Shown one piece after another: positions 19,404 to 61,793 of a stretch of DNA of 64,000 bases. Made by a program: the position numbers and the translations under genes. Position 1 is the first letter of the stretch, and each line of letters opens with the position of its first letter. The notes under the pieces were generated by a model. That model was not told the origin of the DNA, ran no database searches, and was given only the letters and a program-made list of their open reading frames with translations. The stretch comes from Nitrospirota bacterium (GTDB lineage: Bacteria > Nitrospirota > JACRHL01): positions 1,539 to 65,538 of the forward strand of contig JAOUMB010000010.1 of NCBI GenBank assembly GCA_029881725.1, given 5' to 3'.

Positions 19404-20090
19404 TCAGTATCCGCTGGGGGAAAAGTGCATGAAGTCCTTCTGCCGCCCGGCGATTTCGCCACCCCACCGCAGGCCGGCCCGTTGCATGGCGGCGACCACC
19501 GGACCGTCCGGGAGGATGCTCTCCGGCCACTCCCCCGGCCGCCACTCCCCGCCCCGCATCAGGCGGCAGCCGGGACCGTACTGGATGCAGCGGTCGTACA
19601 GGCCGTTCCACCCGGCGTTGATGTCGATGGCGATGCCGTAGGAATGGTTGCTGAAACCGGTTCTCAAGCCCCCGGCATCCGGCTCGCCACGGGTACGGCC
19701 CGGTCGGTAGCCGGTAACGGTAATCACTGGAAAGCCGCTATCCATAAGTTCGGAAAGCGCCGCCTCCACCTGCCCGGCCAGGTGGAGGCAGGCCTGAAAC
19801 GACGCCACCCCCGGCACCCGCACCCAGGTCTGATCCTCGGCACAGACGGTGCAGCCGGTGGCCGGGTCGATCTCGTCCGGGGCCAGGTCCGCATAGGGGT
19901 GACGGACCTGCCGGTGGTTCACGGCGCGCCGCTCCACGGTGCTCCAGTCCCAGGTGTCGTAGCTGCACCATCCGGGGTTTTCCATCACCCTCGGCATGCC
20001 CACCACGCCGTACCCGGCGGCCAGCAGGGCCAGCAGCGCGCCGATCAGGGCCAGCAGGCGCTTTTTAAAGAACGCGGATCGCCGCCGCAT
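19404..20090 (-). CDS. Peptidase M15 family (VanY/D-Ala-D-Ala carboxypeptidase-like) secreted protein.
   Basis: Signal peptide MRRRSAFFKKRLLALIGALLALLAAG. HSYGIAIDIN plus a later DFMHF resemble the M15 zinc-ligand segments. Its start overlaps the pbpC stop by about 25 bp. Confidence 0.7.
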   Translation of the reverse strand: MRRRSAFFKKRLLALIGALLALLAAGYGVVGMPRVMENPGWCSYDTWDWSTVERRAVNHRQVRHPYADLAPDEIDPATGCTVCAEDQTWVRVPGVASFQACLHLAGQVEAALSELMDSGFPVITVTGYRPGRTRGEPDAGGLRTGFSNHSYGIAIDINAGWNGLYDRCIQYGPGCRLMRGGEWRPGEWPESILPDGPVVAAMQRAGLRWGGEIAGRQKDFMHFSPSGY

Positions 20091-22416: not shown

Positions 22417-22524
22417 TGGCGGTCACCACCGGTCAATGGGTTTCCTGCTCGAGTTCAAGGCCTGTATCCCTATCACCTGTGCAACCCCGGCTTCCGCCCG
22501 CCGGGTCGCCACCCAATCACTCCC

Positions 22525-28410: not shown

Positions 28411-28531
28411 CGTTCCCTCTCCCAGGCAGGGGATAATCGAACCCCGGCGGGCCATCCATGGCCATGCCGGTCGGTCCACTGTTCCAGAAGATTTACATTT
28501 TGGCAACCCGGCGGGCGGGCGCAGAGGCTGT

Positions 28532-28843
28532 CTAAGCGGCGGAAAGATGGATGGAAGTGGCGGCGCAGTAGTCACATTGCATCACCAGATGCCGCTGGTG
28601 GGATTCCGTCTCGCAGTGCATGACGCCGCTCAACTGGCCACTGCCACACACCCGGCACGGTTGCTCCTGTCCGCTGTGGTCGTGGGCGCGGGAAACGGTC
28701 ACTTCCGCCTGACAGGCGGTACAGGCCGCCCGGTAGCTATCCCCCCCACTCATGCAGGTGGAATGCAGTTCCAACTCCCCGGCGCCGCAGCAGGGGCAAC
28801 TGGTGGCCGCCAGCATGATGCGGGCACTGGCCTGATGATTCAT
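28532..28843 (-). CDS. Small Cys-rich protein (putative zinc-ribbon).
   Basis: About 103 aa from ATG MNHQASARIML with a GGAGGA RBS. Cys pairs CPCCG...C..C, CRVCG, CDYC. Sits between the beta-barrel gene and the A2M gene. Confidence 0.45.
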   Translation of the reverse strand: MNHQASARIMLAATSCPCCGAGELELHSTCMSGGDSYRAACTACQAEVTVSRAHDHSGQEQPCRVCGSGQLSGVMHCETESHQRHLVMQCDYCAATSIHLSAA

Positions 28844-38571: not shown

Positions 38572-39921
38572 TTGGAAAAACTGCCGATTGGTCCGGAAAT
38601 TCTGGGCAAGCTGCCCTTCGACCCGGAATTGCTGATCTATATCGTCCCGCTGGTGGTGATCTTTCTTTTTTATGCAGGTCGCCGCTCCAGCGCCCACAAA
38701 AAAAGCAGCCGGGTCCTGCGCGAAAACCTGGAGGCGGGCCTCACCGAACCCGCATCGTTGCATCCGCTCATCGACGAGTCTCGTTGCATCGGTTGCGCCT
38801 CATGCGTCACCGCCTGCCCGGAGAGCAAATACGAGGTGCTGGGCATCGTGCACGGCAAGGCGGAACTGATCAACCCCACCGCCTGCATCGGCCACGGCGC
38901 CTGCAAGACCGCCTGCCCGGTGGATGCCATCACCCTGGTGTTCGGTACTGAAAAACGCGGGCTGGACATCCCCAACGTCAAACCCAACTTCGAAACCAAC
39001 ATCCCCGGACTGTTCATTGCGGGGGAACTGGGTGGCATGGGCCTCATCGGCAATGCCGTGGAGCAGGGCCGCCAGGCCATGGACAACATTGCCAAACTGT
39101 CCGGCATGGGCAAGGGCGACGGGTACGACGTGGTGATCGTGGGGGCCGGACCATCGGGCTTTTCCGCCACCCTGGGCGCCATGGAAAAGAAGCTGCGCTA
39201 CCTGACCGTGGAGCAGGATTCCCTGGGCGGCACCGTATACAACTTTCCACGCGGCAAACTGGTCATGACCCGGCCGGTGGACCTGCCCATCGTGGGCAAG
39301 GTCAGGTTCACGGAAACCACCAAGGAAAAATTGCTCGAGTTCTGGACCGACGTGGAAAAAAAGACGGGGGTCAAAATCAGTTACAAGGAACGGGTGGACG
39401 ACATCACCCCCTCCGGCAAGGGGTTCGTGGTCAAAACCAGCAAGGGCACGTACAAGACCCGTGCGGTGCTGCTGGCCATTGGCCGCCGGGGCACCCCGCG
39501 CAAGCTTGATGTGCCGGGCGAGGAAACTCCCAAGGTCACCTACCGGCTGATCGACCCGGAGCAGTACACGGGCCAGCATGTGCTGGTGGTGGGCGGCGGC
39601 GACAGTGCCCTGGAGGCCGCCACCAGCATCGCCGATCAGGCCGGTACCACGGTAACCCTGTCCTATCGCAGCGACGCCTTCGGGCGCGCCAAGGGCAAGA
39701 ACCGGGAGCGGGTGGACGCCGCCGTGGCAGCCGGGCGCCTGAATGTGATGCTCAAAAGCACGGTCAAGGAAATCACCCCGGACAAGGTGGTGATCGACCA
39801 CGACGGCACCCTGCACACGCTCAGCAACGACGCCATCATCGTGTGCGCCGGCGGCATCCTGCCCACCGGATTCCTGAAACAGATCGGCATTCAGGTGGAC
39901 ACCAAATATGGCACCGCCTGA
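38572..39921 (+). CDS. Membrane-anchored 2x[4Fe-4S] ferredoxin-domain FAD/NAD(P)-binding oxidoreductase (thioredoxin-reductase-like fold).
   Basis: TTG start preceded by GAGGAG. N-terminal TM helix LLIYIVPLVVIFLFYAG. CIGCASCVTACP and CIGHGACKTACP (two CxxCxxCxxxCP clusters). Dinucleotide motifs DVVIVGAGPSGFSA and HVLVVGGGDSALEAA. Confidence 0.8.
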   Translation: MEKLPIGPEILGKLPFDPELLIYIVPLVVIFLFYAGRRSSAHKKSSRVLRENLEAGLTEPASLHPLIDESRCIGCASCVTACPESKYEVLGIVHGKAELINPTACIGHGACKTACPVDAITLVFGTEKRGLDIPNVKPNFETNIPGLFIAGELGGMGLIGNAVEQGRQAMDNIAKLSGMGKGDGYDVVIVGAGPSGFSATLGAMEKKLRYLTVEQDSLGGTVYNFPRGKLVMTRPVDLPIVGKVRFTETTKEKLLEFWTDVEKKTGVKISYKERVDDITPSGKGFVVKTSKGTYKTRAVLLAIGRRGTPRKLDVPGEETPKVTYRLIDPEQYTGQHVLVVGGGDSALEAATSIADQAGTTVTLSYRSDAFGRAKGKNRERVDAAVAAGRLNVMLKSTVKEITPDKVVIDHDGTLHTLSNDAIIVCAGGILPTGFLKQIGIQVDTKYGTA

Positions 39922-41944
39922 CGCCGCACCCCCTTCCCGGCGCTGGTGGCCCGTCGCCGTCCTTTTGCTGCTGATGCTGCCCCTGTCCCTGCCCGCCCCG
40001 GCGCTGGCGGACCCCATGGATGACGTGAAGGCCGCCGTGCGCCTGCGCGACTATCCACGTGCCATCCGGCTGCTGACCCCCATTGCGGAAAAGGGCGATG
40101 CCGAGGCCCAGTACCAGCTCGGCTCCCTGTACCGCTCCGGACGCGCCGGGGACAATCCGAAGGCCGCGTTCCGCTGGCTGCTGGCCGCCGCCCAGCAGGG
40201 GCACGCCAAGGCGCAGTATTCGGTCGGCACCCTCTATGAAACGGGCACGGGGGTGGAGCAGAGCGCCGACCGTGCCCTGGTGTGGTATCAGAAGGCTTCC
40301 GCCCAGGGACACGACGGGGCCCAGACCCGCGCCGAAGCCCTCCAGGGTACCCTCGGAAGTAAAAAGGACCGTCCCAGCCGTCAGGAATTGACCGCGGCCC
40401 TTCTGGCCGCCGCCGAGAGCGGGGATGACCGCGAAGTGCGCAGGCTCCTGAAACAGGGGGGCGACGCCAACGCCACCGACGCCGCCGGGCACTCCGCGCT
40501 GATGAACGCCGCCGCCCAGGGGCATCTCAAGGTGGTGCGGATTCTGCTCAAGGCGGGCGCCAAGCCCAACCTGGCGGACAAATACGGGGATACCGCCGTC
40601 ACCCTGGCCGCCCGCCACGGGCGTCCGCGCACCCTGGTCGCCCTGCTGGACGCCGGGGGCGATGTCAACGCCACCGACGGCAACGGCAACACCCCCCTGA
40701 TCCTGGCGGCGCTGCACGATCACGCCAAGACCACCGAGTTGCTGATCAAGGCCCGCGCCCGGCTCAATACCCGGAACAAGAACGGAGAAACCGCCCTCGA
40801 CGTGGCCGTGCGCAAGGAGCACCGCAAGCTGGTCGCCCAGTTGGAAGCGGCGGGTGCCACCCGCACCGCACAGGCGGCGGAACCCGCCATACCTCAGTCC
40901 GTGGAGGCGCTGGAGGCGTTGCAGGCCGGCGGCGACGACGCCCTTTACGCGGGGTGGTCCACCCTGGCGGTGGCCGCCTGGCGTGGTCAGGCGGAGGCCA
41001 TGAAAAAGCTGCTGGCCCAGGGCGCCAGGGTGGACGCCCGCGACCCGGAGGGGCACACCCCTCTGAGCCGCGCCGCGTGGCAGGGCCACCTGGAAGCGGT
41101 CAACCTGTTGCTGGCCCGCAAGGCCAACCCCAATGCCTACCAGAAAGACGGCCGGAGCCCCATCCTGTGGGCAGCGGAAAACGGTCACACCGAGGTGGTG
41201 ACCGCCCTGCTCAAGGCCGGTGCCCGCGCTGGAGAGCGGCAGGGCAAGGATGGCGACAGCGCCTTGATGCTGGCGGTGCAGAAGGGCAGCGCCGAAACCG
41301 TGGAGGTGCTGCTGAAGGCCGGAGCCGATCCCAACATGGCCCTGCCCGACGGCGAAACCGCGCTGCTGCGCGCCGCCGCCCGCGGCAGCCTGGGAATCGT
41401 CCGCCAATTGCTGGCTGCGGGGGCCCAGGTGAATCATCGGGACCAGGATGGCCGTACCGCCCTCTGGTTCGCCGCCAATGCCGGCGCGGTCAAGACCTGC
41501 GGCGTGCTGCTGGGCGCCAGGGCCAATGTGGCCTACGTGGATGCCTCCGGTCACACGGCCCTGTCGCGGGCCGCCCTCGGTGGACACTCCGGGGTAATCG
41601 CCGCGCTGCTGAAACAGGGAGCCCAGCCCGACACACGCACCCGGGAGGGAAACACACCCCTGTTGCTGGCCGCCTCCGAAGGGCACCTGGAGACGATCCA
41701 GCGCCTGCTGGAAGCAGGCGCCAAGGTGAACACCCAGAACGAGGCCGGAGACACCGCCCTGATCCGCGCCGTCATCGGTCGCCATCCGCGCGTGGTAGGC
41801 TTGTTGCTCAATCAGGGGGCCGATCCGAAGATTCGCAACAAGAAGCGGCAAACCGCCCGCTCGCTGGCAGAGGAATCCGGGGACGAAAACCTGATCCGCG
41901 TGTTCGAAAAGCCGGAAGGCAAAAACCTGCTCGACCTGTTTTGA
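39908..41944 (+). CDS. Secreted protein with N-terminal Sel1-like repeats and about 14 ankyrin repeats.
   Basis: Signal peptide MAPPDAAPPSRRWWPVAVLLLLMLPLSLPAPALA. Sel1 units AQYQLGSLYRSGRAGDNPKAAFRWLLAAAQQGHAKAQYSVGTLYETGTG.... ANK consensus repeated, for example DAAGHSALMNAAAQGHLKVVRILLKAGAKPN, DGNGNTPLILAALHDHAKTTELLIKARARLN. The ATG overlaps the upstream stop by 14 bp. Confidence 0.85.
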   Translation: MAPPDAAPPSRRWWPVAVLLLLMLPLSLPAPALADPMDDVKAAVRLRDYPRAIRLLTPIAEKGDAEAQYQLGSLYRSGRAGDNPKAAFRWLLAAAQQGHAKAQYSVGTLYETGTGVEQSADRALVWYQKASAQGHDGAQTRAEALQGTLGSKKDRPSRQELTAALLAAAESGDDREVRRLLKQGGDANATDAAGHSALMNAAAQGHLKVVRILLKAGAKPNLADKYGDTAVTLAARHGRPRTLVALLDAGGDVNATDGNGNTPLILAALHDHAKTTELLIKARARLNTRNKNGETALDVAVRKEHRKLVAQLEAAGATRTAQAAEPAIPQSVEALEALQAGGDDALYAGWSTLAVAAWRGQAEAMKKLLAQGARVDARDPEGHTPLSRAAWQGHLEAVNLLLARKANPNAYQKDGRSPILWAAENGHTEVVTALLKAGARAGERQGKDGDSALMLAVQKGSAETVEVLLKAGADPNMALPDGETALLRAAARGSLGIVRQLLAAGAQVNHRDQDGRTALWFAANAGAVKTCGVLLGARANVAYVDASGHTALSRAALGGHSGVIAALLKQGAQPDTRTREGNTPLLLAASEGHLETIQRLLEAGAKVNTQNEAGDTALIRAVIGRHPRVVGLLLNQGADPKIRNKKRQTARSLAEESGDENLIRVFEKPEGKNLLDLF

Positions 41945-42104: not shown

Positions 42105-42611
42105 ATGATCAAGCGCTTGAGCCCGATTCTGTTTATTGTTCTGCTGGCCGCCTGCCAGCCCAAGGAAGGCGCCAAACCCGCGGATTCGGCCGGTGCCGGC
42201 CCGCAGTCCTCCCCCAGCGCCGAATCACGCCCGGCAGGCAGCGCCGAAGCGGAAGTGGCGAACTACATCCGTACCCACATGATGGTCAAGGAAGTGCGCA
42301 TCGGCGAGGGACGCCAGGGCGCCGACGGCGGCGAGACGATCCGCGCCCTGTACGGCGTGGTGGCCAACGGTGGCACCCGCGACCTGAAAAAAGTGGTTAT
42401 CCAGGCGGATCTGCTGGATGCGAACGGAAAACCGGTGGCAGCCGCCGAGTTCGTGCCGGTGATCGCCACCCGCGACGGAGCGGTGGACGAGGCGGGGCTG
42501 CTCAAGGGCCATTCGGAACGGGCCTTCGGGTATTCCATCGAGCATCTGGTTCCCAAAGAGTGGAAGGGGACCGCACGGGTGATCGTGACCGGCCTTGAAT
42601 TCCACGGTTGA
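42105..42611 (+). CDS. Hypothetical lipoprotein.
   Basis: AGGGAG RBS. MIKRLSPILFIVLLAACQP (lipobox LAAC). Low-complexity linker followed by a small globular domain. Confidence 0.6.
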   Translation: MIKRLSPILFIVLLAACQPKEGAKPADSAGAGPQSSPSAESRPAGSAEAEVANYIRTHMMVKEVRIGEGRQGADGGETIRALYGVVANGGTRDLKKVVIQADLLDANGKPVAAAEFVPVIATRDGAVDEAGLLKGHSERAFGYSIEHLVPKEWKGTARVIVTGLEFHG

Positions 42612-42639
42612 GGGCCATCCCTCCGACCGGTCCTCATCC

Positions 42640-44583
42640 ATGTTCCCTTCCGGCCGCCTGAACGCCCGGTGGCACACGCCGCTGCACCTGCTTTTACTGG
42701 CGCTGGTGTGTCTGGGGGTGTACGCCAACGGCTACCATCACGTATTCCAGCTGGACAGTTCCCACGTTCTGGAGGACAACCCCAGCGTCCGCAGCCTGGG
42801 CAACATCCCGTCCTATTTCACCGATCCGGGCACCTTTTCGGTGCTGTATGCCAATGTGGACTACCGGCCGGTGCTACAGGTCACCTATGCCCTGAATTAC
42901 TGGCTGGGCGGCTACCACATGCCGTGGTGGCACTTCACCCAGATCCTGCTGCACTTCCTGTGCGCCGTGGGGATCTACCTGCTGTGCCGCCGGGTGATAG
43001 CGCTTTCCGAACCGGAACACTCCGACGGGGCCTGGATCCCACTGGCCGCGGGATTGTTGTTTGCCCTGCACCCCACCGCGTCCGGGGTGGTCAATTACCT
43101 GTCCGCCCGCTCGTCGTTGTTGACCGCCGCATTTTTACTGCCGTCCATCCTGCTGTACATGGACTCCCTGGAGGGTCCGCATAACCGCCTTCGGCGGGCG
43201 ATGGCCGCGCTCCTGTACACGCTGGCCCTGTTCTCAAAAATCGAGGCCGTGGGGTGTCTGGCGGTCTACTTCATGTTCGAGATGTGGCACACTGCGCGCA
43301 CCGGGGGCCACCGGAACGGATTTTTTCGGGATCTGGCCGCAACCCTCACCCCGTCGGTGTTACGGCGTCTGGCGCCGTTTCTGGCGGCTACCGCCGCCTA
43401 TCTGGCCATTCGCGCCCCGCTCATGGCGCGTTTTCCGTTCGGTGATTCCCGCGAGGGCACCGGCATTGGCAACCTGGACTACCTGTACACCCAGTTGGTG
43501 GTGTGGTGGGCCTATGTGGGCAAGTGGTTCGCCCCGGTGGACCTGGTAGCCGACCAGGGCAACTATCCGGTTTACCGCAGCCTGCTGGAGCCCACGGTGC
43601 TGGTGGCGGCGGGCGGCTGGGCGTTGGTCACCGCGCTGCTGATCACCGGGTGGCAAAAACGGCCCCATCAGGCGGTGCTGGCTATCTCGGCACTGGCCCT
43701 GCTCAGCCCCACCTCGTCCATTCTGCCGCTGGCGGAAATGCTCAACGAACACCGCCCCTATCTGCCCATCGGGATTCTGTCGCTGGTGTGGATCATCCCC
43801 GCCGCCCGGGCCGCCGAACGCATGGCCTCGGAAAGCCGTGGCTTCCCCCTGTATGTGCCGGGGCTGGTGGCGCTGTTGTGCGGGCTGGGCGCCCTCACCT
43901 TCGACCGCAACCGGGTGTTTCTGACCACCGAGAGCTACTGGCTGGACGTAATAGAAAAAGCCCCCTCCGCCCGCGCCTATGTGAACTACGGTCTGACCCG
44001 CATGACCGCAGGCGAGATAGAGACCGCCCAGGAGTATTTTTTAAAGGCCCAGGAGATGTCGCCCAACTGGCATATCGTGCACATCAACCTGGCGGTCACC
44101 TACCGGGAACAGGGGCGGCTCGATCTGGCCGAGCAGTATTACAACCGCGCGGTGGAGAGCGATACCTTCACCGGCGGCTCCCTCTCCTGGCGGGGCGAAT
44201 ACCGGCTTACCCGCGGTCGCTATGCGGAAGCCCTGGCCGACTTTCTGGCCAGCCAGCCGAAAAGCCTGGAGCACTACCGCAACGCCAAGGGGGCGGCGAC
44301 GGCCTTCGCCGGACTGGGCGATGCGCAAAACGCGTTTGTGCACACGGCCCGTTGCCTGAAACTGAACGCGGAGCAGACCGGACGCGACATCGTGGTCATT
44401 GCCGAGCCGTTCTTCACCCTTCCCTCCGGGGCCGCTCCCGGTCTGGCCTATTTCCAGAAACTGGCTGAACGTCTGCCGGACACCTGGTGGGTGCATGCCA
44501 ACATCAGCACCCTGGCCTTCCGCCTCGGCCAGAATGAACTGGGACAGCAGGCCGACGCCCGCGCCCAGGCGCTCAAGGGGTAG
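42640..44583 (+). CDS. Polytopic membrane protein with C-terminal TPR repeats (TMTC/DUF1736-like, GT-C-fold glycosyltransferase-like).
   Basis: N-terminal half has about 10 TM helices with a DYRP(V/L) motif (ANVDYRPVLQVTYALNYW). C-terminal roughly 200 aa are TPR-like (AYVNYGLTRMTAGEIETAQEYFLKAQEMSPNWHIVHINLAVTYREQGRLDLAEQYYNRAVE...). Confidence 0.7.
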   Translation: MFPSGRLNARWHTPLHLLLLALVCLGVYANGYHHVFQLDSSHVLEDNPSVRSLGNIPSYFTDPGTFSVLYANVDYRPVLQVTYALNYWLGGYHMPWWHFTQILLHFLCAVGIYLLCRRVIALSEPEHSDGAWIPLAAGLLFALHPTASGVVNYLSARSSLLTAAFLLPSILLYMDSLEGPHNRLRRAMAALLYTLALFSKIEAVGCLAVYFMFEMWHTARTGGHRNGFFRDLAATLTPSVLRRLAPFLAATAAYLAIRAPLMARFPFGDSREGTGIGNLDYLYTQLVVWWAYVGKWFAPVDLVADQGNYPVYRSLLEPTVLVAAGGWALVTALLITGWQKRPHQAVLAISALALLSPTSSILPLAEMLNEHRPYLPIGILSLVWIIPAARAAERMASESRGFPLYVPGLVALLCGLGALTFDRNRVFLTTESYWLDVIEKAPSARAYVNYGLTRMTAGEIETAQEYFLKAQEMSPNWHIVHINLAVTYREQGRLDLAEQYYNRAVESDTFTGGSLSWRGEYRLTRGRYAEALADFLASQPKSLEHYRNAKGAATAFAGLGDAQNAFVHTARCLKLNAEQTGRDIVVIAEPFFTLPSGAAPGLAYFQKLAERLPDTWWVHANISTLAFRLGQNELGQQADARAQALKG

Positions 44584-44723: not shown

Positions 44724-46028
44724 CTACGGGTGACCCGGGCACGGTTTGCCCGGCACGCAGATCATGATCACCGCCAGCATGCCGCCCGGTCCCACACCCT
44801 CGTTCTGCAACTCGATCTCGAAGTGCGAGTGGAACGGAACGTACATCTCGCCCATGGCGTTCAGGTTGATCGGTGCGTCGGCACCCAGGTCCACCTTGTG
44901 GCCCAGATAGGCCGTACCGCTGAACAACTGGCCAAAACCCACGTTGATGTTCACCGAGTTGTGCTCCGGCGGCACGATCACCGGCACCGGCTGGGTTACG
45001 TCTCCGCCATACACGTCGAACCCGAAGTTCATGGGCGGATCCCAGGTGAAGATGCCGTCCTGGGTGTCTCCCGGATGCATGGTCTGGGTGTACTCCTCAA
45101 TGGCCAGGTCGCCGTTCACGCCGTCGGAACTGAGCGGGCGGCCGTTGCGGGCCAGCACCATCAGATGGTTGCCGTGGCTGTGCAACGGATGCATGTCACG
45201 ATCGAAGGTCACCATGCGCACCAGCAGCCGCTCCTTGGGATACAGCGCCAGCAACGCGCCCATGGGCTGGTTGGGCAGATACGAAACCGTGTCCGGCGCG
45301 ATGGTGTCCGGGAATGCCCGCCCGTTGACGAACCAGTACTGGGGCAGATAGGCGGAGTTCTGATACGGCAGACCCGCCTTGATCCGCTTGTGCTGATCCG
45401 GGTCCACCGCGCTGTAGAACTGCACAACTTCATAGTCGTAGTTGCTGCCGGTGGTGAAGTAGGCCTGGTTGGGCAGCCCGGTGCGCACGATGATCGCGCC
45501 CACCAGTCCCATATCCACATGCTTGTGCGGATAGGTACCGCTGTAATAGGTGTAGGTGCCCGGCTTGGCCGCCACAAATCGATAGGACACGGTCTGTCCT
45601 GGAGCCGCCTCGCCCGCCAGGGAGCGCAGGGATTCCTTGCTGCCGCCGGTGGTGTAGGCCGGGCCGGTGGGCGCCCAGGTCACACCGCCGTCGGACGAGA
45701 ACTCCACGTTCTCGTGCCCGGGAAACAGCAGCGACACCGCATCGGCGCTCATGGGGCCGCTGGGGCCGTCCATGTCCGGCAGCGCGTTGGTCAGGTTGAC
45801 CGTTACCGTGTCACCCACCAGCACGTCGAGCACCGGGCCCGGGTAGCGGAAACCGCCCGCGCTGTCGCGGAAGCTCCACATGTAGATCTGGGCGCCGTCC
45901 GGCATCGAGATCTCACCCGCGTCGGCCGTCAGGTTGAATACCGCCGCACTGGCCGGGGTAAAGGCCATCAGAAGCATCCCGACGGACACCCCTGCCGCCG
46001 TCAGCATGCGTTTCATTACGCCGCGCAT
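44724..46028 (-). CDS. Multicopper-oxidase superfamily (cupredoxin) secreted protein that appears to lack the type-1 Cys ligand.
   Basis: Sec signal MKRMLTAAGVSVGMLLMAFTPASAA. HPLHSHGNH and HSHFE His clusters are retained. At the position where the neighbouring paralogue has YHCHVEPTEHIALGMVG, this protein has YPHKHVDMGLVG (no Cys). Confidence 0.75.
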   Translation of the reverse strand: MRGVMKRMLTAAGVSVGMLLMAFTPASAAVFNLTADAGEISMPDGAQIYMWSFRDSAGGFRYPGPVLDVLVGDTVTVNLTNALPDMDGPSGPMSADAVSLLFPGHENVEFSSDGGVTWAPTGPAYTTGGSKESLRSLAGEAAPGQTVSYRFVAAKPGTYTYYSGTYPHKHVDMGLVGAIIVRTGLPNQAYFTTGSNYDYEVVQFYSAVDPDQHKRIKAGLPYQNSAYLPQYWFVNGRAFPDTIAPDTVSYLPNQPMGALLALYPKERLLVRMVTFDRDMHPLHSHGNHLMVLARNGRPLSSDGVNGDLAIEEYTQTMHPGDTQDGIFTWDPPMNFGFDVYGGDVTQPVPVIVPPEHNSVNINVGFGQLFSGTAYLGHKVDLGADAPINLNAMGEMYVPFHSHFEIELQNEGVGPGGMLAVIMICVPGKPCPGHP

Positions 46029-46109
46029 AGGTCCATCTCCGCGATAGTTGGCAAACGATGTCTGCCGGTCAAGCCGTTCATATCCACTCCTGGCACCCTG
46101 CCTTCCCGG

Positions 46110-47498
46110 TTAGTTCAACCGGATCTCGGTGATCATGCCACCCCTGTTGTCCACTCCCAGGCCTGCCTGGCGATCGGCCAGAGACAGGTTTGCCTGGGTG
46201 TCCAGTTCGCGCCCGTACAGAAAATACGTTCCCGGAGCCAGCCCCGTGGTGTCCAGAATCACGTCCATCTCTTCCCCCCCGGCCAGCGCCAGGGCTGAAC
46301 GATGGTAGGAAAGGTCGGTGCCCGGAACGCCACCCGGGCCGTCCGGTCCGCGCAGGATCTTGGCATCCTTGCCCACCACGTGCATGGGAATGCCCGGGAT
46401 GACCAGCGAGTGCGAACGGTAGGTCAGGTTGTTGAGGCGCAGCAGGATGCGCTGCCCCACATTGGCCGTAATCAGCGACGAATACGGCTGGGCGATATAG
46501 TCTTCCTTGTAGGCGGAAGCGCCGTTCAGCATGACGTTGGCAGCCGGATCCGGCGCCGCCGGGAGTAATGTCTCCGGATAGGCACGACCGTTGAAGGTGT
46601 AGTAGTTGGCCTTGAACTCGGCCCACACGTTGCGCCCTTCCGCCACGGTCTCCAGATTATGGTGCTTGTCCGCGTCCAGGTCGTGCATGTGAATCACCTG
46701 GGCCACGTCATACCGGGTGTTGGGCGCGGCGCCGCCATCGTTGTAGGCGAAGAACTGCCCGGCGGCCGGGTTGTTCTGGGCCGGATTGACGATAATCGTG
46801 CCCACCATGCCCAGGGCGATGTGCTCCGTCGGCTCCACGTGGCAGTGGTAGCCGTAGGTGCCCGGATCGTTCAACTTGTAGAAATAGGTAAAGTTGCTCG
46901 AAGGTGGAACCGCAACCGACATCTCTGGCACCCCGTCAAACGCCGAAACCGCGTGTGCATACCCGTGGAAGTGGACCGTATGCGGGTCCGCCAGGTCGGG
47001 GCGCACCAACAGCCCGAGGTTGGTGATCGTCAGATAGAGGGACTGTCCCTCGTCCACTTCAATATCGGGTGCCGGAAGCGTAGCCTTGAATTTATAGTCG
47101 ATCAGGTCTGCCTCGGGCACTCCCGTCAGGTCCATGAATCCGAAAATGAACAGGTTGCTGCCGTCCGGCATCTTCACATAGCCGTCGGTGGTGCCCACCC
47201 GACGGCATACCGCCGTGGGGTCGATGGGCAGGCCACTCTTGTGGTTGTACGCGCCGTCGCCGTTCCAGTCGATGTCCTCGGCACCCGGGGTTGCGCTGTA
47301 GCCCGGAGCGGCGGGGTCCAGGGACCAGTCGTACGGCATGTTGTCAATATCGTTGGGGCACTGCATGCCCGTGCCCAGGGAAACCGGAGCGGTAACGGCC
47401 CAGGAGTCGGTGGCTCCGGCCAGCCCGGTGGCGGCCATGGCCAGCCCGAGGATCATGGTTTTGGCCAGATTCCATTTGTTGGAGCGCCGCGGCTTCAT
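46110..47498 (-). CDS. Multicopper-oxidase / NirK-like cupredoxin protein with an apparently complete set of copper ligands.
   Basis: Signal peptide MKPRRSNKWNLAKTMILGLAMAATGLAGA (possible Tat-like RR). HTVHFHG (HxHG), YGYHCHVEPTEHIALGMVG (H-C-H...H....M type-1 site), later VIHMHDLDADKHH. RBS GGGGAG. Confidence 0.8.
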   Translation of the reverse strand: MKPRRSNKWNLAKTMILGLAMAATGLAGATDSWAVTAPVSLGTGMQCPNDIDNMPYDWSLDPAAPGYSATPGAEDIDWNGDGAYNHKSGLPIDPTAVCRRVGTTDGYVKMPDGSNLFIFGFMDLTGVPEADLIDYKFKATLPAPDIEVDEGQSLYLTITNLGLLVRPDLADPHTVHFHGYAHAVSAFDGVPEMSVAVPPSSNFTYFYKLNDPGTYGYHCHVEPTEHIALGMVGTIIVNPAQNNPAAGQFFAYNDGGAAPNTRYDVAQVIHMHDLDADKHHNLETVAEGRNVWAEFKANYYTFNGRAYPETLLPAAPDPAANVMLNGASAYKEDYIAQPYSSLITANVGQRILLRLNNLTYRSHSLVIPGIPMHVVGKDAKILRGPDGPGGVPGTDLSYHRSALALAGGEEMDVILDTTGLAPGTYFLYGRELDTQANLSLADRQAGLGVDNRGGMITEIRLN

Positions 47499-47659
47499 CT
47501 CAAATTCTCCCCGCATCAGGTCGATCTTGCGGGTGGCCGGGCACAGGTTCAGATTCCCGGTGTTCTCTGCTTTTGAATCTTGTTTCATACTCAGTCCAAC
47601 CCTTGGTCACACAAAAAAGAGGGGGTGGGGGTGGCCGAAGCCACCCCCACCCGTTGGGG

Positions 47660-50266
47660 TTAGTTCGCGATCACGCAGATGGCGTATACCGTGAGGGTGC
47701 TATCCGAGATTTCACCCGTGGTGTCCACCTTCACGCGCCAGCCGGTGGGGTTGAGCCCGCCGTCGGGCAGGTTCTCCACCAGACGCAGGGCCGGGCCGGA
47801 GAGGCCGAGTCCCACGTGGCCGGTGTAGCCACCGCCGACCGGCTTCTTGCCGACCGGGCAGGTCGCCGCGCCACCCGCCGCCGCCTGTGCGGGCGGTACG
47901 GTCACGGTGGAGCTGATCACCTGGTAGCCGGAGACACCGTTGATGCCGTCGGCACCCGCGGCGCCGGTGGCACCCGTGGAGCCGGTGGCACCCTGCGGAC
48001 CCGTGGCACCCTGCAGGCCCGTGGGGCCCTGGATACCCGTGGCACCCGTGGCACCCACAGCGCCGGTGGCACCGGTGGCACCCACAGGACCCTGGGCACC
48101 GGTGGCACCCGTGGAGCCGGTGGCACCCTGCGGACCTACGTTACCCTGCGGACCCTGGGAGCCCTGCGGACCCGTGGCACCCTGGATACCCTGCGGACCA
48201 GCCGGGCCGGTAGCGCCCTGCGCACCCTGCGCACCCACAGCACCCTGCGGACCGGTGTTACCGGTGGCGCCCTGCGGACCCTGCGGTCCGGCAACGCCCT
48301 GGAGGCCTTGTGCGCCCTGCGGGCCGGTATCACCCTTGGCACCGGTGGCACCGGTGGCACCTTGGGCACCCTGCGGACCAGTGTCACCGGTGGCGCCCTT
48401 CGGACCAGCCGGTCCTGTCAGACCGGTATCACCGGTGGCACCCGTGGCACCCGTGGCGCCAGTAGCGCCGGCAGCGCCCTGCGGACCAGCCGGTCCGGTC
48501 AGACCGGTATCACCGGTGGCACCCGTGGCACCCGTGGCGCCGGCAGCGCCCTGCGGACCTACATTACCCTGCGGACCCTGGTTGCCCTGCAGGCCCTGCG
48601 GACCAATCGGACCCTGGTCACCCTTCAAGCCCTGCGGACCCTGCGGGCCCTGCGGACCCACGGCACCCTGCGGACCGGTGTTACCGGTGGCGCCCTGCGG
48701 ACCCTGCGGTCCGGCAACGCCCTGGAGGCCTTGTGCGCCCTGCGGGCCGGTGTCACCCTTGGCACCGGTGGCACCTTGGGCACCCTGCGGACCAGTGTCA
48801 CCGGTGGCGCCCTTCGGACCAGCCGGTCCGGTCAGACCGGTATCACCGGTGGCACCCGTGGCACCCGTGGCGCCGGCAGCGCCCTGCGGACCCACGTTAC
48901 CCTGCGGACCCTGGTTGCCCTGCAGGCCCTGCGGACCAATCGGACCCTGGTCGCCCTTCAGGCCCTGCGGACCCTGCGGACCGGTATCACCCTTCGCGCC
49001 GGTCGGGCCAACCGGGCCCATCGGGCCAACATCACCCGTGGCGCCGGTGGCACCCTGCGGACCCACGTTACCCTGCGGACCCTGGTTGCCCTGCAGGCCC
49101 TGCGGACCAATCGGACCTTGGTCACCCTTCAGGCCCTGTGGGCCCTGGGCACCGGTGGCACCCTGCGGACCAGCCGGTCCGGTCAGACCGGTATCACCGG
49201 TGGCACCCTTGGCGCCCGTGGCGCCGGTGGCACCCTGCGGACCCACGTTACCCTGCGCACCCTGGGAGCCCTGCGGACCCGTGGCACCCTGGATACCCTG
49301 CGGACCAGCCGGTCCGGTAGCACCCTGCGCACCCTGCGGACCCACGGCACCCTGAGAACCGGTGTTACCGGTGGCGCCCTGCGGACCCTGCGGTCCGGCA
49401 ACGCCCTGGAGGCCTTGTGCGCCCTGCGGGCCGGTATCACCCTTGGCACCGGTGGCGCCCTGGGCACCCTGCGGACCTACGTTACCCTGCGGACCCTGGT
49501 TGCCCTGCAGGCCCTGCGGACCAATCGGACCCTGGTCACCCTTCAGGCCCTGCGGACCCTGCGGACCGGTATCACCCTTCGCGCCGGTCGGGCCAACCGG
49601 GCCCATCGGGCCAACATCACCCGTGGCGCCGGTGGCACCCTTCGGACCAATATCACCCTGCGGACCCTGCGATCCCTTCGGACCGGTGGGGCCATCCAGG
49701 CCCTGCGGACCCACGGAACCGGTGACGCCGGTCGGTCCAACCGGACCCACCGGACCCTGGGCACCGATGGCACCCTGCGGACCCTGCGGACCCTGCGGTC
49801 CCGGGGTCAGGGAGGTATAGGCATACGGAACACTCCCGAACGGACGCGGAGGCGTCAGCTCCTGGAATGCAACGTTAAAGGGGTCGGGGCTGAACCACAC
49901 CCGCAGCAACGCTTCCGAGGTTCCGAAGGCGGTGGCCGGGATGGGGTTCATCCCCGCCGCGCCGAGATCCACGTGAAAATCGCCGTAGACGACCGGAGCC
50001 GCCTGGGAACCGGCGGGCACTTCCACAATCTGGTTGCTCTCCACCGAACCGTCGTTCGACCACAGGGTGGCATACCCCGCCGTCGCATTCCCGGTCACGA
50101 TGGTGAATTTGAAATATCCGGTACCGGTGAACGGAACACCGCTGGCGTCAAGCTTCCCCGAATAGGGAACGACCTCCGGAATAAGGGATTGCTGCGCCCA
50201 CACAGGTACCTGCCCAAAGGCAAGCATGGTGGCCGCGACATACACAAGCAGTCTCGACTTTTTCAT
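47660..50266 (-). CDS. Collagen-like triple-helix repeat protein with N- and C-terminal globular domains.
   Basis: Signal peptide [24 protein letters not shown]. About 165-aa N-terminal domain, then about 200 uninterrupted Gly-X-Y triplets ([25 protein letters not shown]...), then a roughly 95-aa C-terminal domain ending ...[16 protein letters not shown]. Confidence 0.85.
47950..49790. repeat. Internally repetitive DNA encoding the collagen Gly-X-Y tract.
   Basis: Long runs of near-identical 9-27-nt units (ggcacc ctgcggacc ...). Antisense frames give long spurious ORFs (for example 47573..50560 +). Confidence 0.8.
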
Positions 50267-50317
50267 CTTAATACTCCCACTGTTCACAGAACGACACATC
50301 CTTGTTGTTCATTTAAA

Positions 50318-50926
50318 TCAGTACAATCTGTAATCGGCGCTGGTGCTCTCACCGGTCACCGGACCATCACGCCCGGTCATGCTGCCCATCACGTCCACCA
50401 GGACGTAGCCGGCGGCACTGCGGCGGTTACTTACTGTCGGAAACGAACCCGAATCAAACGGCAGGGACCCCAACGCCAGTTCCATCAGATCGGTAAAGCC
50501 GTCCTGATCGCTGTTGGTGAACTGAATCTCCCCCGCGGTCAGCACCACGGTGGCCAATAGCGGATCGGTCCAGTTCAGATTGGCGGTGGTCCGGCCCACC
50601 ACGGTGCGGGTGGAGCCATCATCGATCAGAAACACGATGTCCAGGGCCAGCGTGGGTCCGCTATGGCGGATGCTGTCCTGAACGGCCCCGGTGGCGGGAT
50701 CGATATTCAGTTCCACCACACTTCCATTGGCAAGGTGTGCCTCGGCCACCAGCGTCCCGCCTGGAACCTGATGGTGTACCAGTTGGGAAGGAAGATCGAT
50801 CTTGAAATCCTTCGCCGCCGAAGCACCGCCGCCCTCGGGGCCACCCGTTGCACCGCACCCCGCAGTCACGAGCATCATCGAGACTCCGAGGAACAGCCAC
50901 CGGAACCTTGCGCCGGTTTTTGTCAT
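50318..50926 (-). CDS. Hypothetical lipoprotein.
   Basis: MTKTGARFRWLFLGVSMMLVTAGCG (lipobox VTAGC). No recognisable motifs. Lies immediately upstream of the collagen-like gene. Confidence 0.55.
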   Translation of the reverse strand: MTKTGARFRWLFLGVSMMLVTAGCGATGGPEGGGASAAKDFKIDLPSQLVHHQVPGGTLVAEAHLANGSVVELNIDPATGAVQDSIRHSGPTLALDIVFLIDDGSTRTVVGRTTANLNWTDPLLATVVLTAGEIQFTNSDQDGFTDLMELALGSLPFDSGSFPTVSNRRSAAGYVLVDVMGSMTGRDGPVTGESTSADYRLY

Positions 50927-51447
50927 TGATCTAAAACACACGGTTATTTAACTCCTGCCTTCTGTCGCCAGACCGGTATTTTCCGGCCGATTCGACCTGT
51001 GCTGGATCCGGGTTACTCAAACACCTTAACAACCCGTCCCCATCCGGAGACTTGATCCCATCCATGGGCACTCCACAAACACAGTTCCATTCGTGTCTGC
51101 ACAATATCAGTGCACCAGACGATTGCAGGTTCTTTGCCAATCGTCCCGCTTTTCGTAAACATGATTATCTTACAGTCACTTATGATCGACTCGCACTGAG
51201 CACTCGTCAATTCACAACCAAACACTTTCTATTGCTGGGAAAAAGTTTAGGACTTTCCGACAAAATATTGACGAAACTCTTTCCCTTTGGAAATGAGTAC
51301 ATTTACATAGCACTTTTGAGGGGGGTGGGGGTTCCGCAAGGGGATAGCGGAACACGGAGGCGGTTATCCGGAAACCGGAAGTTCAAGAGGGAGGAATTGA
51401 GGCCAGATTTTCGGCACCGCGCGGGAGGCGCGCGGGGGGAAGGATAA

Positions 51448-51975
51448 TCAGTTACCCAGATCGGTTCCCGAGGTCGCGGTGACGCGGTCCGGAAGCACCG
51501 TTCCGTCCACCCCGATAAAGGTGGTGCCATCCCAGACCAGAGCCCCGTTGTTGCCGGTTCCCGAAAGGTCAAAACGGAGGGTTCCCAGCGTTCCTTCCGA
51601 AACCCCTTCCAGGGCCACCAGCAAACGGCCCGGATCACTGGTCAACGGCAGCATCCGTGCCGCGCCAAGGAGGGGATTGGCGGTGAAGCCGGAAAACGTC
51701 ATCCATGTGGGATCGAACAGGATTTCGGCCGAAATGCCGCCCACCCCGGCCAGGTTCAACGTGGGGTCCAGGTTGGACAGGGACAGGGTCACGTCCGCGC
51801 GGGTTGCGGTGGAGCCGGGTAACAGGGTGAGTGACAGGAGATTTTCACTGGCACCATGCCCGCCGCCCGGAACGACCGGGTCACCCCCACCCACGCCACC
51901 TCCACCACAGGCGGCAAGCAGCACGCAGACCAGTGCGGCGCAAAGAGGCGCTGATATCCAGTGGCCACGGGTCAT
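51448..51975 (-). CDS. Small lipoprotein of about 175 aa, probably beta-rich (speculative cohesin-like partner for the dockerin proteins).
   Basis: MTRGHWISAPLCAALVCVLLAACGGGG (lipobox LAAC). Its ATG overlaps the TGA of the upstream S8 peptidase gene (ATGA). Ser/Thr/Gly-rich, strand-like sequence. Confidence 0.55.
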   Translation of the reverse strand: MTRGHWISAPLCAALVCVLLAACGGGGVGGGDPVVPGGGHGASENLLSLTLLPGSTATRADVTLSLSNLDPTLNLAGVGGISAEILFDPTWMTFSGFTANPLLGAARMLPLTSDPGRLLVALEGVSEGTLGTLRFDLSGTGNNGALVWDGTTFIGVDGTVLPDRVTATSGTDLGN

Positions 51976-53918
51976 GGAAGCCCCCTTTTCGAACCAAACA
52001 GGGACTCCAGCAGCAGCCGGTCGGCGCCGTCCAGAACCCCGTCGCCGTTCAGGTCGAAGCGGGGGTGCGGACTGGGGGAGGTCATCGCCGTGGTCAGGCT
52101 GACCAGGTCGAATGCGTCCACCCGCCCGTCCGTGGCCACGGCGCCACGGTTTACATCGCCCGGCATGGCCTCCGCCGGGGCGCTGCGCAAGGACGGATTT
52201 CCGCCGTCCACCGCTTCCACGGTATAGATGTCCCCCGGACCGAAGGCCCGTCCGGAATCGGTCAGTTCCAGTCCGGTGGTGGTTCCCAGCGCAAACCCGT
52301 TTCGGGATACCGCATAGGCAATCCCCGCGCCCCGGCCGGGCACCGCGTCCCACCGGACGCTCACCCCGGTGCCGGTTTCGGCCAGCCAGAGGTCCGGAAC
52401 ACGTGCCACCTTCGGAGCCAGTCCCCATCCAGCGTTGCCGGCCAGCAGCTGGTTGAAGGCTGCGGTGATGTCAATCAGGCCGAACCCGTACTGGTTGTTC
52501 GGTGTGGCACCCCCATCCAGCGGGATGGCGGTCAATGCCAGCGCGGCCTCCACCTCATCCACGGTCAGATCCGGAAATGCCGACAGCAAGAGCGCCACCG
52601 CGCCGGTCACGTGGGCAGCGGCAATGGAGGTGCCGTTGAAATACTGATAGTTGGCCACGCCGCCATTGCTGAAGGTGGCGGTGTAGACCTCCTGGCCGGG
52701 GGCCACCACATCTGGATACTGGGGGCGGCCGGCACAGGTGGTGGGTCCCTGCCCGCTGCTCTGCCCGGCAAAATTCCACAAAGCCCCCTGCGGGTTGGTG
52801 GCTCCCACCGCGATCACCTCCGGATACCCGGCGGGAAGGTGCGGCTTGCCGTCGTTGCCGGCCGAGGCCACCAGCACCACACCGGCGGCACGCAGGTTTT
52901 GCATGGCCACTTGCAGGTCGGTGTAGGTGTTGCAGGATTTTCCCGGTTCCACGGTGGATTGCAGCGACCAGCTCATGTTGATCACGTCCGGCGGAGTGGT
53001 TTCCAGCAACCACTGCAACGCACCCAACGCGGCGGCCACGTCGGAAGTACCGTTGGCATTGATAATGCGTGCGGCGGCCCACGATGCATCCGGGGCCAGG
53101 CCAATCCCCTGTCCGGAAGCGGCATGCCCCAGAATGGTGCCCATCACACCGGTTCCGTGCCCGGAATAGGCGGAACTGGAGGGGTGATCGGCAGGGACCG
53201 GGGAGCCGGGACACGGCCCGGCACCGGTGCCGGTGGTATCGCACCAGCCACGAGCCCCGGCGCGATAGCGGCTGGGAACCAGATCCGGGTGACGTGGGTC
53301 CACACCGGTATCGGTGGTGGCCACCACAACCTCTCCTCCGGTGTAGCCCATGGCCCACACCGGAGCGGCATTGACCTCGGTCAGGTTCCATCCCTCCGGG
53401 GCCACTCCGCCCCCGCCACCCCCAGCCTGGGGAACCAGCGGCACGCTGACCGGTGCGTTTTCAATGATGCGCGCCTCGGGAAACTGGGCGGCAAGTTGAC
53501 GGATGGTTTCGGGAGTGGCATCCAGGGCCACGGCGTTGATCAGCCACAGGGGGCGCATACGCGTGGCGCGCCCGGCCCGCACATGTTGTTGCAACTGGGG
53601 CAATGCGGTCTGTTGGGTCGCCTCGGCGGCCCGGCGCAGACCGGAAATCATCCCCTGCCGGCGCATTATGCGCGGCTTTCCGGCCACGGACGGGCGCAGT
53701 GCCGGATCGTCGGGAAATACCAGAATCACCGGCACCAGGTCGCCGGACCCGGCGGCGGCCATGCGCCCCTTCAGGGTGGCGTCAATGGTGCCGGCGGATA
53801 CCTCGGGGGAGTCGCTCCACTGCATGGCCAGCGCCAGCAGGAACAGGGCAAAGGCAAACCCCGCGCCGATGGCGGCGGGGGTGCCGTAATTGCCTGATTT
53901 TCCGGAGGGAATGCGCAC
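51972..53918 (-). CDS. Subtilisin-like S8 serine peptidase with a C-terminal type-I dockerin module.
   Basis: GTG start. N-terminal signal anchor. Catalytic triad motifs VVATTDTGVD (Asp), SGHGTGVMGTILG (His), GTSIAAAHVTGAVALL (Ser). C-terminal DVNRGAVATDGRVDAFDLVSL...RFDLNGDGVLDGADRLLL (two Ca-binding dockerin segments). Confidence 0.85.
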   Translation of the reverse strand: MRIPSGKSGNYGTPAAIGAGFAFALFLLALAMQWSDSPEVSAGTIDATLKGRMAAAGSGDLVPVILVFPDDPALRPSVAGKPRIMRRQGMISGLRRAAEATQQTALPQLQQHVRAGRATRMRPLWLINAVALDATPETIRQLAAQFPEARIIENAPVSVPLVPQAGGGGGGVAPEGWNLTEVNAAPVWAMGYTGGEVVVATTDTGVDPRHPDLVPSRYRAGARGWCDTTGTGAGPCPGSPVPADHPSSSAYSGHGTGVMGTILGHAASGQGIGLAPDASWAAARIINANGTSDVAAALGALQWLLETTPPDVINMSWSLQSTVEPGKSCNTYTDLQVAMQNLRAAGVVLVASAGNDGKPHLPAGYPEVIAVGATNPQGALWNFAGQSSGQGPTTCAGRPQYPDVVAPGQEVYTATFSNGGVANYQYFNGTSIAAAHVTGAVALLLSAFPDLTVDEVEAALALTAIPLDGGATPNNQYGFGLIDITAAFNQLLAGNAGWGLAPKVARVPDLWLAETGTGVSVRWDAVPGRGAGIAYAVSRNGFALGTTTGLELTDSGRAFGPGDIYTVEAVDGGNPSLRSAPAEAMPGDVNRGAVATDGRVDAFDLVSLTTAMTSPSPHPRFDLNGDGVLDGADRLLLESLFGSKRGLP

Positions 53919-53933
53919 GCCGTGGGGAGTCCC

Positions 53934-54386
53934 CTAGTTCACCTTCCAGCCATCCACCACCACCTCGCCGAAGTGGAGTTCCACCGGATCACCCGGCTCG
54001 AACACCATATCCGGGTTCTTGAACAGGGAGTAATAGATGCGCTCCGGACGGGTGCGGGTGGCCTTGGTGCGCAACAGGCCGAGCATGGTGTGCGGAATCT
54101 CCGCCACCTGACCGCTGGCCGGCTCCACCAGATACATGGGGATGTCGGAGGCCGCGCGCAGCAGCTTGCTGGCCTGCTCCGGGTTCACCACCCGGAAACG
54201 CAGGTCCAGCATATGCCCTCCGGCGGTGGTGCGCAGGCTGACCAGTTCGATACCGATCTCCCGGGCCAGCCGCTCCTCGGAGGGCGACTTTTTGCTGAGC
54301 ATCGCCGCCGGACCGTGGGCGCAGGCCCCCAATCCGAGCAGCCCCGCGGAAAGCACCAGCGCCGACAGCATTCCGGTCCACTTCAT
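53934..54386 (-). CDS. Hypothetical lipoprotein.
   Basis: MKWTGMLSALVLSAGLLGLGACAHG (lipobox LGAC). About 150 aa, no motifs. Confidence 0.55.
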   Translation of the reverse strand: MKWTGMLSALVLSAGLLGLGACAHGPAAMLSKKSPSEERLAREIGIELVSLRTTAGGHMLDLRFRVVNPEQASKLLRAASDIPMYLVEPASGQVAEIPHTMLGLLRTKATRTRPERIYYSLFKNPDMVFEPGDPVELHFGEVVVDGWKVN

Positions 54387-54411
54387 GCCATTCCCCCTGC
54401 CTGCCGTTCGA

Positions 54412-61680: not shown

Positions 61681-61793
61681 GTTCACCACCTCGTTCCTCA
61701 CCGGAGTCATATTCATATTCCTTGCCCCCGAAATCCTCTGGGTACGGCTTTGCAGCCCGTCACGCCGGTCACACATACCATTCCGATCCATGA

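Follow-up and report, generated by a model that had tools for sequence, protein, structure and literature searches.

In trimers of two-domain multicopper oxidases (2dMCOs), each trinuclear cluster (TNC) takes its ligands from two protomers (PMC13151041). The type C members of this class (3G5W and 2ZWN) consist of chains of two cupredoxin domains with the type 1 (T1) copper in the N-terminal domain, and their TNC is formed by four His of domain 1 (D1) of one chain and four His of domain 2 (D2) of the neighbouring chain. They are homotrimers whose chains each have the full set of 12 ligands, so that a trimer contains three T1 sites and three TNCs. This paper deals with two adjacent genes, A (46110..47498) and B (44724..46028), on the minus strand of a 64,000-nucleotide stretch of DNA from a Nitrospirota bacterium (assembly GCA_029881725.1, contig JAOUMB010000010.1, positions 1,539 to 65,538), which as a whole is called the window below. 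A and B are likely to be different subunits of one heteromeric multicopper oxidase (MCO) derived from the type C 2dMCOs, and a third paralogue, C, encoded elsewhere in the window, is most likely the remaining member of the ring.

Gene clusters that fit the same description have been noticed before. He et al. (2017) reported 'three tandem MCO-coding genes' together with mofC-like and copper chaperone genes in Sideroxydans lithotrophicus ES-1, with no clue to their function (PMC5566968). Keffer et al. (2025) compared growth on magnetite and Fe(II)-citrate and found higher expression of the genes Slit_1812-1818 on magnetite; in their description, MCO motifs called 'canonical' are present in two of the proteins, and one more protein, larger and motif-free, has adhesin and polysaccharide-lyase-like domains. 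They also listed similar clusters in Burkholderiales, Anaeromyxobacter and Steroidobacteraceae (10.1101/2024.09.20.614158). The core genome of the Manganitrophaceae is also reported to hold 'two novel MCOs' (PMC9040806), which may or may not be A and B. Neither a half-cluster in each protein nor a heteromer is noted in the published work on the Slit genes, and our literature search for heteromeric or split-site MCOs returned only the proteolytic 'heterotrimers' of Nmar_1354 and the small subunits of fungal laccases. The gene cluster is previously noticed, widespread and uncharacterised, and an obligate split-site heteromer appears to be undescribed.

Genes and Domain Structure of A and B

Gene A encodes a protein of 462 amino acids (aa). 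The public annotation begins at a longer, alternative ATG at 47588 (P0001, 492 aa); the start at 47498 is preferred, as a GGAG stands 8 nt before it and the resulting protein begins with a canonical Sec signal peptide, MKPRRSNKWNLAKTMILGLAMAATGLAGATDSWA. In this form, residues 1-34 of A are the signal peptide, residues 35-100 form an N-terminal arm with the conserved Cys47 and Cys98, and D1 and D2 follow. B, of 434 aa, has its own ATG with GGAG 7 nt upstream, and is composed of a Sec signal peptide (residues 1-28), a D1 without ligands and a D2 with four TNC His. A and B share one reading frame and are separated by a stop and 27 codons. An intrinsic terminator (47623..47652, minus), with a 13-bp stem of which 11 pairs are GC and then a T-run, lies between A and the collagen-like gene before it; since the terminator follows the latter gene, A-B is regarded as a separate transcription unit.

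The two proteins are paralogues (BLASTP: 22% identity over 337 columns, E 2e-15), and both match Pfam Cu-oxidase_3 and Cu-oxidase_2 (E 1e-13 and 3e-08). Their closest solved relatives by sequence are 3g5w, the blue copper oxidase of Nitrosomonas europaea, and 2zwn (mgLAC), and the same two structures are matched by Foldseek with the AlphaFold2 (AF2) monomer models of A and B at TMt 0.73-0.76. The mean predicted local distance difference test (pLDDT) of the models is 80.4 for A and 77.5 for B, and the predicted TM-score (pTM) is 0.79 and 0.78, respectively. A and B thus have two cupredoxin domains per chain and are probably derived from type C 2dMCOs, in keeping with the preliminary description of this DNA, which had presented them as tandem cupredoxin/MCO paralogues and had considered a two-domain class. 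Cross-scores of hidden Markov models (HMMs) suggest that A split off first among the paralogues, followed by B and C.

Two elements of these chains stand apart in the monomer models. The N-terminal arm of A with Cys47 and Cys98 is conserved, yet its pLDDT is below 50, and the same low value is found in an insertion of about 60 aa in B (residues 334-394) that holds 13 near-invariant residues. Judged from the models, both may be elements that become ordered only in a complex.

Sec-type signal peptides are found in the A, B and C families. Tat export was considered for the RR in the N-terminus of A and rejected: a Tat-like motif occurs in 1 of 118 A-family proteins.

A separate observation concerns the start of domain 2, where all three paralogues have a D-x-x-x-H element, with His279 in A, His213 in B and 'DPVWH' in C (about residue 235 of the giant protein described below). 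The His is kept in 116 of 119 homologues of A, in all 120 of B and in most of C; it does not belong to the known ligands of MCOs, and 3g5w and 2zwn lack it. It might point to an additional metal or proton site of a pseudo-threefold assembly.

Complementary Half-Sites

The copper ligands were surveyed in 119-120 database homologues each of A and B, and in 80 genomic loci together with the window (81 sequences). In the database homologues, the half-site positions of both proteins are invariant.

First of all, D1 of A holds the T1 site and four TNC His. Motif 1, HTVHFH (residues 173-178; 46965..46982, minus), supplies H173 to T1 and H176 and H178 to the TNC; it is invariant in 119/119 homologues and 81/81 locus sequences and aligns with HTIHWHG of 3g5w. 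Motif 2, HCHVEPTEHIALGM (residues 218-231; 46806..46847, minus), provides H218 and H220 for the TNC and C219, H226 and M231 for T1; its HCHHM pattern is likewise found in 81/81 locus sequences, and it aligns with YHCHVNVNEH of 3g5w. The reading frames of A and B given in the preliminary description, and the intact T1 motif that it assigned to A, are confirmed. D2 of A is ligand-free: V and P occupy the His sites of motif 3 in the window, Y-L stands at motif 4, and in the family (Y-L) these TNC positions are never His.

The picture in B is the reverse. The motif-1 position of its D1 reads VSLLFP, and YSGTYPHKHVDMGL (residues 162-175; 45504..45545, minus) replaces HCH..H..M, with YSG at the position of HCH and the invariant Ser163 in place of the T1 Cys. 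B has two Cys in all (C424 and C430), both C-terminal and neither conserved. Across the 80 loci and the window, the motif-1 TNC positions of B are never His and motif 2 never has a Cys or an HCH triad; none of the 81 sequences has a Cys at the T1 position, where xSGQL or xSAQL is found instead. In D2, motif 3 (HPLHSH, residues 280-285; 45174..45191, minus) brings H283 and H285 to the TNC and aligns with HAIHTHG of 3g5w and HAMHSHG of 2zwn; it reads HHH in 79/81 sequences and YHH in the other 2, both TNC His being retained throughout. Motif 4 (HSH, residues 400-402; 44823..44831, minus) adds H400 and H402, with no Cys between them, reads HH in all 76 complete sequences and aligns with IHDH of 3g5w and 2zwn. 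It had been stated before that B apparently lacks the Cys ligand while keeping several His clusters, and this holds: realignment finds no Cys at the aligned position, and the loss is kept in the orthologues.

The former view of A and B as a catalytic and a non-catalytic member of a pair does not hold, since A is without the four TNC His of D2 and B keeps exactly those four. This complementarity is found at every complete position in the 80 loci, which represent about a dozen phyla. In the type C enzymes all eight TNC His belong to one polypeptide, and here the set is complete solely for A and B together; the T1 ligands lie in the N-terminal domain of A, as in type C (81/81), and are missing from B (Ser163) and from C. 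Because a TNC forms between D1 of one chain and D2 of the next, neither A nor B is expected to be an oxidase alone. Read from their sequences, A and B probably supply exactly one complete ligand set, at the contact of D1 of A with D2 of B, so that each gene would encode half of one catalytic site.

The third paralogue completes the pattern. In the window, C reads TSFMVP, ESA..Q, DHVIVID and LFD at the four motif positions, which makes it a ligand-free paralogue, and its family has no TNC or T1 ligands (QSGQL; [LIV]-D) save one residual His in 3 of 73 sequences. The four domains predicted to lie at contacts without a cluster, namely D2 of A, both domains of C and D1 of B, are exactly the ligand-free ones.

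Distribution, Gene Order and Fusions

One genome per species was scanned, which gave at least 557 species with relatives, and 80 loci were retained. B lies directly after A in 80/80 loci from about 12 phyla, and C comes after B in all 73 loci that reach beyond B. The carriers belong to Nitrospirota, Desulfobacterota, Gamma- and Betaproteobacteria, Bacillota, Planctomycetota, Acidobacteriota, Chloroflexota, Actinomycetota and others, and include Gallionella and Rhodoferax ferrireducens among the Gamma- and Betaproteobacteria, as well as Geobacter. A large protein, D, is encoded by a separate gene directly upstream of A in 57 loci, and phmmer matches to D are present in 64-68 loci. The canonical operon, as in Gallionella (L063), is D-A-B-C-small-S8 protease-SCO1-MofC-like cytochrome, where 'small' denotes a family of secreted proteins of about 150 aa that comes after C in 45 loci. 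As for copper handling, SCO1/SenC is a neighbour in 20 loci and CopCD in L087 and L089.

The pairwise-distance matrices of the paralogues are correlated, with r = 0.83 for A-B, 0.73 for A-C and 0.78 for B-C. Moreover, the genes are fused in several ways. D::A fusions occur in 8 loci and in L088 as well; B::C fusions occur in four independent representatives of clusters, and the gene context confirms three of these (A, B::C, small, CopCD in L087 and L089; D::A, B::C, small in L088); and C::D is fused in the window and in one other locus. Because of the strict synteny, the correlated distance matrices and the natural fusions D::A, B::C and C::D, A, B, C and D probably form one machine.

The source of the window is a Nitrospirota metagenome-assembled genome (MAG), and the closest relative is annotated as Leptospirillia. 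The nearest related locus (L086) has the same local order as the window, i.e., the collagen-like gene, A, B and a convergent TPR gene, and its contig ends upstream; the canonical A-B-C order is seen in a Nitrospirota MAG that is less closely related (L085). Two other polypeptides (P0443 and P0487) each contain two C-like two-domain modules in tandem, one without His motifs and the other with HCH and several HxH motifs, which suggests further architectural variants of the system.

Paralogue C, Module D and Accessory Genes in the Window

In the window, C and D are found in one giant gene (54412..61791, minus) of 2459 aa, whose product consists of a signal peptide, the two-cupredoxin module of C, He_PIG, module D, two PKD domains and a dockerin. 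The N-terminal C module (60667..61596, minus) is matched by the HMM of the C family (famC) with 311 bits (E 2e-94). Module D (55147..59994, minus; residues ~600-2215, ~1600 aa) has SdrD_B, CarboxypepD_reg, TIG and beta-helix matches, and is colinear with the separate protein D of other loci (30-35% identity over ~1650 aa, E about 0). The C-terminal dockerin is type I-like (54445..54585, minus; Pfam Dockerin_1, 24.3 bits).

Two accessory genes follow. The first (53934..54425, minus) encodes a small secreted protein of 163 aa with a lipobox-like LGAC; it is matched by the HMM of the 'small' family (109.5 bits, E 3e-33) and has no Pfam or NCBIfam match. The family consensus includes GymlDfRyrv.D..KA and F.Npg and a lipobox-like signal, with no conserved Cys, His or Met, and the protein may be an assembly or anchoring factor. 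The second (51972..53918, minus) encodes an S8 subtilase (Pfam Peptidase_S8, 1.2e-44) with a weak C-terminal dockerin match (Dockerin_1, 20.9 bits, below the cutoff of 22.9); its homologues occur in 33/80 loci, and come after 'small' in L063 and L083. The preliminary description had overlooked all of these components, i.e., paralogue C, module D and the two accessory genes, at 51972..61791.

Just downstream of the protease gene, a lipoprotein-like open reading frame (ORF) with MTRGHWISAPLCAALVCVLLAAC... (51448..51975, minus) was considered as a cohesin-type anchor for the two dockerins and rejected, as it has no cohesin or other Pfam match. The order on the minus strand of the window is C::D, small, S8 protease, a 207-aa ORF, the collagen-like gene, the terminator, A and B, and B is then followed by a convergent TPR gene and not by C.

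Proposed Assembly and Mechanism

In the proposed assembly, D1 of A would hold the blue T1 copper (H173, C219, H226 and M231) and one half of the TNC (H176, H178, H218 and H220), and D2 of B would contribute the other half (H283, H285, H400 and H402), giving a single complete trinuclear cluster at the interface of the two domains. The ligand-free C, here the N-terminal module of 54412..61791, would most likely fill the third place of the trimeric ring. The predicted ring order is B.D1-B.D2, A.D1-A.D2, C.D1-C.D2, with copper ligands at the contact of B and A only. Such a ring would amount to a six-domain oxidase assembled without covalent links, with one T1 and one TNC. Electrons from an external substrate would enter at T1 of A and pass along the H218-C219-H220 bridge to the TNC, where O2 would be reduced to water. 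What the data show directly are the folds, the conserved ligand patterns, the synteny and the fusions; the 1:1:1 assembly, the order of the ring, O2 as the acceptor and the substrate are inferred.

All three subunits have Sec signal peptides, and the complex would be extracellular. C would close the ring and also tether it outside the cell by module D and the dockerin fused to it. The S8 protease and the small lipoprotein-like protein are encoded by conserved accessory genes; in other genomes, copper might be supplied by the SCO1 or CopCD-type neighbours. The likeliest substrates would be metal species outside the cell, e.g., Fe(II) or Mn(II), with mineral-bound forms included. On balance, we lean slightly towards the full form of this proposal, in which A·B·C would be the first recognised obligate hetero-oligomeric MCO, with one T1 and one split TNC, tethered to D, acting as an extracellular metal or mineral oxidase in at least several hundred species of about a dozen phyla, strict anaerobes included, and being the non-covalent counterpart of the postulated intermediate between homotrimers and six-domain enzymes.

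Several points weigh against this proposal. In the window, C lies 8 kb upstream of A-B, beyond the terminator and the inserted collagen-like gene, and its co-expression with A and B is not assured. The SCO1 gene and the MofC-like cytochrome gene, which are common in other loci, were not found in the 64-kb window by HMMs derived from the loci. Many of the carriers are strict anaerobes (Desulfobacterota, Moorellaceae, Peptococcaceae, Thermodesulfovibrio, Geobacter), which is odd for an O2-reducing enzyme. In addition, the 1:1:1 stoichiometry and the ring order were deduced from the ligand logic by itself, and the suggested substrates go back to one proteomic study of another organism, whose proteins were matched by description and not by sequence.

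Alternative Explanations

The first alternative keeps the split site and leaves out C: A and B would form a heterodimer or an oligomer of their own (e.g., A·B·B), and C and D would be surface adhesins that share the operon. The ligand logic strictly demands A and B alone, C is not adjacent to them in the window, and C evolves faster, with a mean identity of 37% against about 50% for A and B. But C retains the two-cupredoxin fold and its place after B, it is fused to B in several lineages, and the ligand-free domains are the very ones predicted at the contacts without a cluster. Besides, no solved 2dMCO in the lists of PDB matches is described as a dimer, and the citable quaternary states are trimers or higher multiples. 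An oxidase of A and B only is thus judged unlikely.

In the second alternative, the heteromeric copper complex would be a component of extracellular electron transfer and not an O2 reductase, comparable to what has been proposed for OmpB and OmpC of Geobacter in the reduction of Fe(III) oxides. This would agree with the frequency of the cluster in strict anaerobes and metal reducers (Geobacter, Rhodoferax ferrireducens), with the MofC-like cytochrome and SCO1 genes that it has in common with ompB/mofA clusters, and with the two 21-haem cytochromes 8-12 kb away in the window. However, the eight TNC His and the Cys-His bridge are invariant, which is the signature of four-electron O2 reduction, and this role for the complex is considered distinctly unlikely.

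The third alternative returns to one working enzyme: A would be a self-sufficient, homotrimeric, laccase-like 2dMCO, and B a non-catalytic structural or regulatory paralogue. A does have a complete T1 site and both HxH/HCH motifs of D1, and B has no T1 Cys. Nevertheless, with no His at either TNC motif of D2 in 81/81 sequences, a homotrimer of A would have only 4 of the 8 cluster ligands; the four D2 His of B are invariant across phyla, which is unexpected in a non-catalytic protein, and A and B are adjacent in every one of the 80 loci. Such a division of roles appears very improbable.

The two weakest alternatives had both come up in the preliminary description. A NirK-type copper nitrite reductase, or something close to one, is scarcely credible as the identity of A: its YHC...H...M resembles the T1 loop of NirK and NirK structures are among its sequence and fold matches, but A has the MCO pattern of HxH and HCH, whereas NirK has no His after the Cys and no paired HxH, A has no D2 His for the third type 2 ligand, TIGR02376 gives 41 and 37.6 bits against a cutoff of 296.3, and A is best matched in structure by the oxidases 3g5w and 2zwn. 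As little weight is given to A and B as periplasmic copper-resistance oxidases of the CopA/PcoA type, for although TIGR01480 heads the NCBIfam names for A and CopCD lies beside some related loci, the match reaches 47.6 bits against a cutoff of 478.95 and covers about 100 residues, the proteins have two domains and not three and a Sec instead of a Tat signal, and there is no copB in the window.

Other Genes in the Window

The collagen-like protein (47660..50299, minus) has 879 aa, with long GXY repeats between an N-terminal domain of ~170 aa and a C-terminal globular domain of ~95 aa, and its gene is preceded by that of the 207-aa secreted protein (50318..50941, minus), which has no family match; the region of 50-52 kb has a lower GC content (0.58). 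Both genes were considered as parts of the oxidase system and rejected, for the 80 related loci contain no homologue of either one, and the collagen-like gene ends in a terminator. We treat the two as a lineage-specific insertion, of which the collagen-like gene is kept beside A-B in the nearest relative (L086) only. The association of the system with surface proteins, suggested in the preliminary description, is supported, and the collagen-like neighbour as a part of the system is not.

Convergent with B is a gene for a 662-aa membrane protein with C-terminal TPR repeats (42595..44583, plus), which is also found beside B in L086, and further downstream of B lies a 678-aa secreted protein with ankyrin/Sel1-like repeats (39908..41944, plus). 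Two multihaem cytochromes c with 21 CxxCH each are encoded at 32573..34348 and 34394..36064 (minus), with MtrC/MtrF-domain and DmsE-family matches, and are preceded by a 720-aa ORF (35983..38145, minus) without a family match. The segment 32573..38145 may be an extracellular electron-transfer module of the porin-cytochrome type, 8-12 kb from the oxidase genes; the two cytochromes fit a metal-redox lifestyle and prove nothing about the enzyme of A and B. At 20065..28575 (minus), a bacterial alpha-2-macroglobulin (2016 aa) adjoins a transglycosylase/transpeptidase of the PBP1C type, a pair that we take to be the known periplasmic defence module and unrelated to the oxidase genes.

Significance

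Every solved or cited 2dMCO that was checked is a homo-oligomer with a full ligand set in each chain. If the proposal of a heteromeric A/B/C enzyme is true, it would be a new quaternary solution for the MCO class, with the TNC spread over two gene products and a third paralogue without ligands, and either gene expressed alone is predicted to give an inactive protein. In terms of evolution, it would offer a testable model of how the loss of ligands after duplication leads from symmetric trimers to asymmetric six-domain oxidases. The B family comprises 1148 clusters at E <= 1e-30, and thousands of genes that now bear the name "multicopper oxidase domain-containing protein" would then be reclassified. 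As for physiology, in an iron oxidiser magnetite induces a cluster that matches by description, and the system is common in metal-cycling and anaerobic bacteria; taking A, B, C and D as one machine makes a role in extracellular metal redox chemistry testable.

Comparison with Known Systems

Among described gene clusters, Slit_1812-1818 is alike in gene content and order to the canonical loci such as that of Gallionella (L063), the match being one of description and not of sequence. Its trio Slit_1816-1818 has two motif-bearing cupredoxin proteins and a third, larger and motif-free, with adhesin/lyase-like domains, and A, B and C::D show the same trait of three cupredoxin genes; the cluster also contains small hypothetical proteins, SCO1/SenC and a cytochrome, and its proteins are predicted to be extracellular. 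In the window the small protein is present too, SCO1 and the MofC-like cytochrome were not found, the gene order is rearranged and C is not in tandem with A-B. By description, MofA of Leptothrix and OmpB of Geobacter are also extracellular multicopper proteins with adhesion-type domains, and their clusters likewise have a MofC-like gene (cytochrome c and a periplasmic binding domain) and a SCO1/SenC gene; unlike the present system, they are single large polypeptides.

Compared with the type C 2dMCOs, A, B and C have their ligands divided over two genes, with a third paralogue that has none, and one T1 and one TNC are predicted per assembly. The Cys-bridged N-terminal arm of A and the 60-aa insertion of B are extras, and export of the three families is predicted to be by Sec and not by Tat.

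The six-domain MCOs of the ceruloplasmin type are comparable by architecture, and not by sequence or structure: three two-domain units make up a ring with pseudo-threefold symmetry, a single TNC lies at one contact of the units, between the first and last domains, and the remaining unit contacts have lost their ligands. Membership in this group was considered for the present system and rejected, since the domains are spread over three genes. Ceruloplasmin is one polypeptide that has its T1 sites in the even-numbered domains and has kept three of them, whereas A/B/C would be three polypeptides (two where B and C are fused) with one T1, located in a first domain; the resemblance lies in how the two may work.

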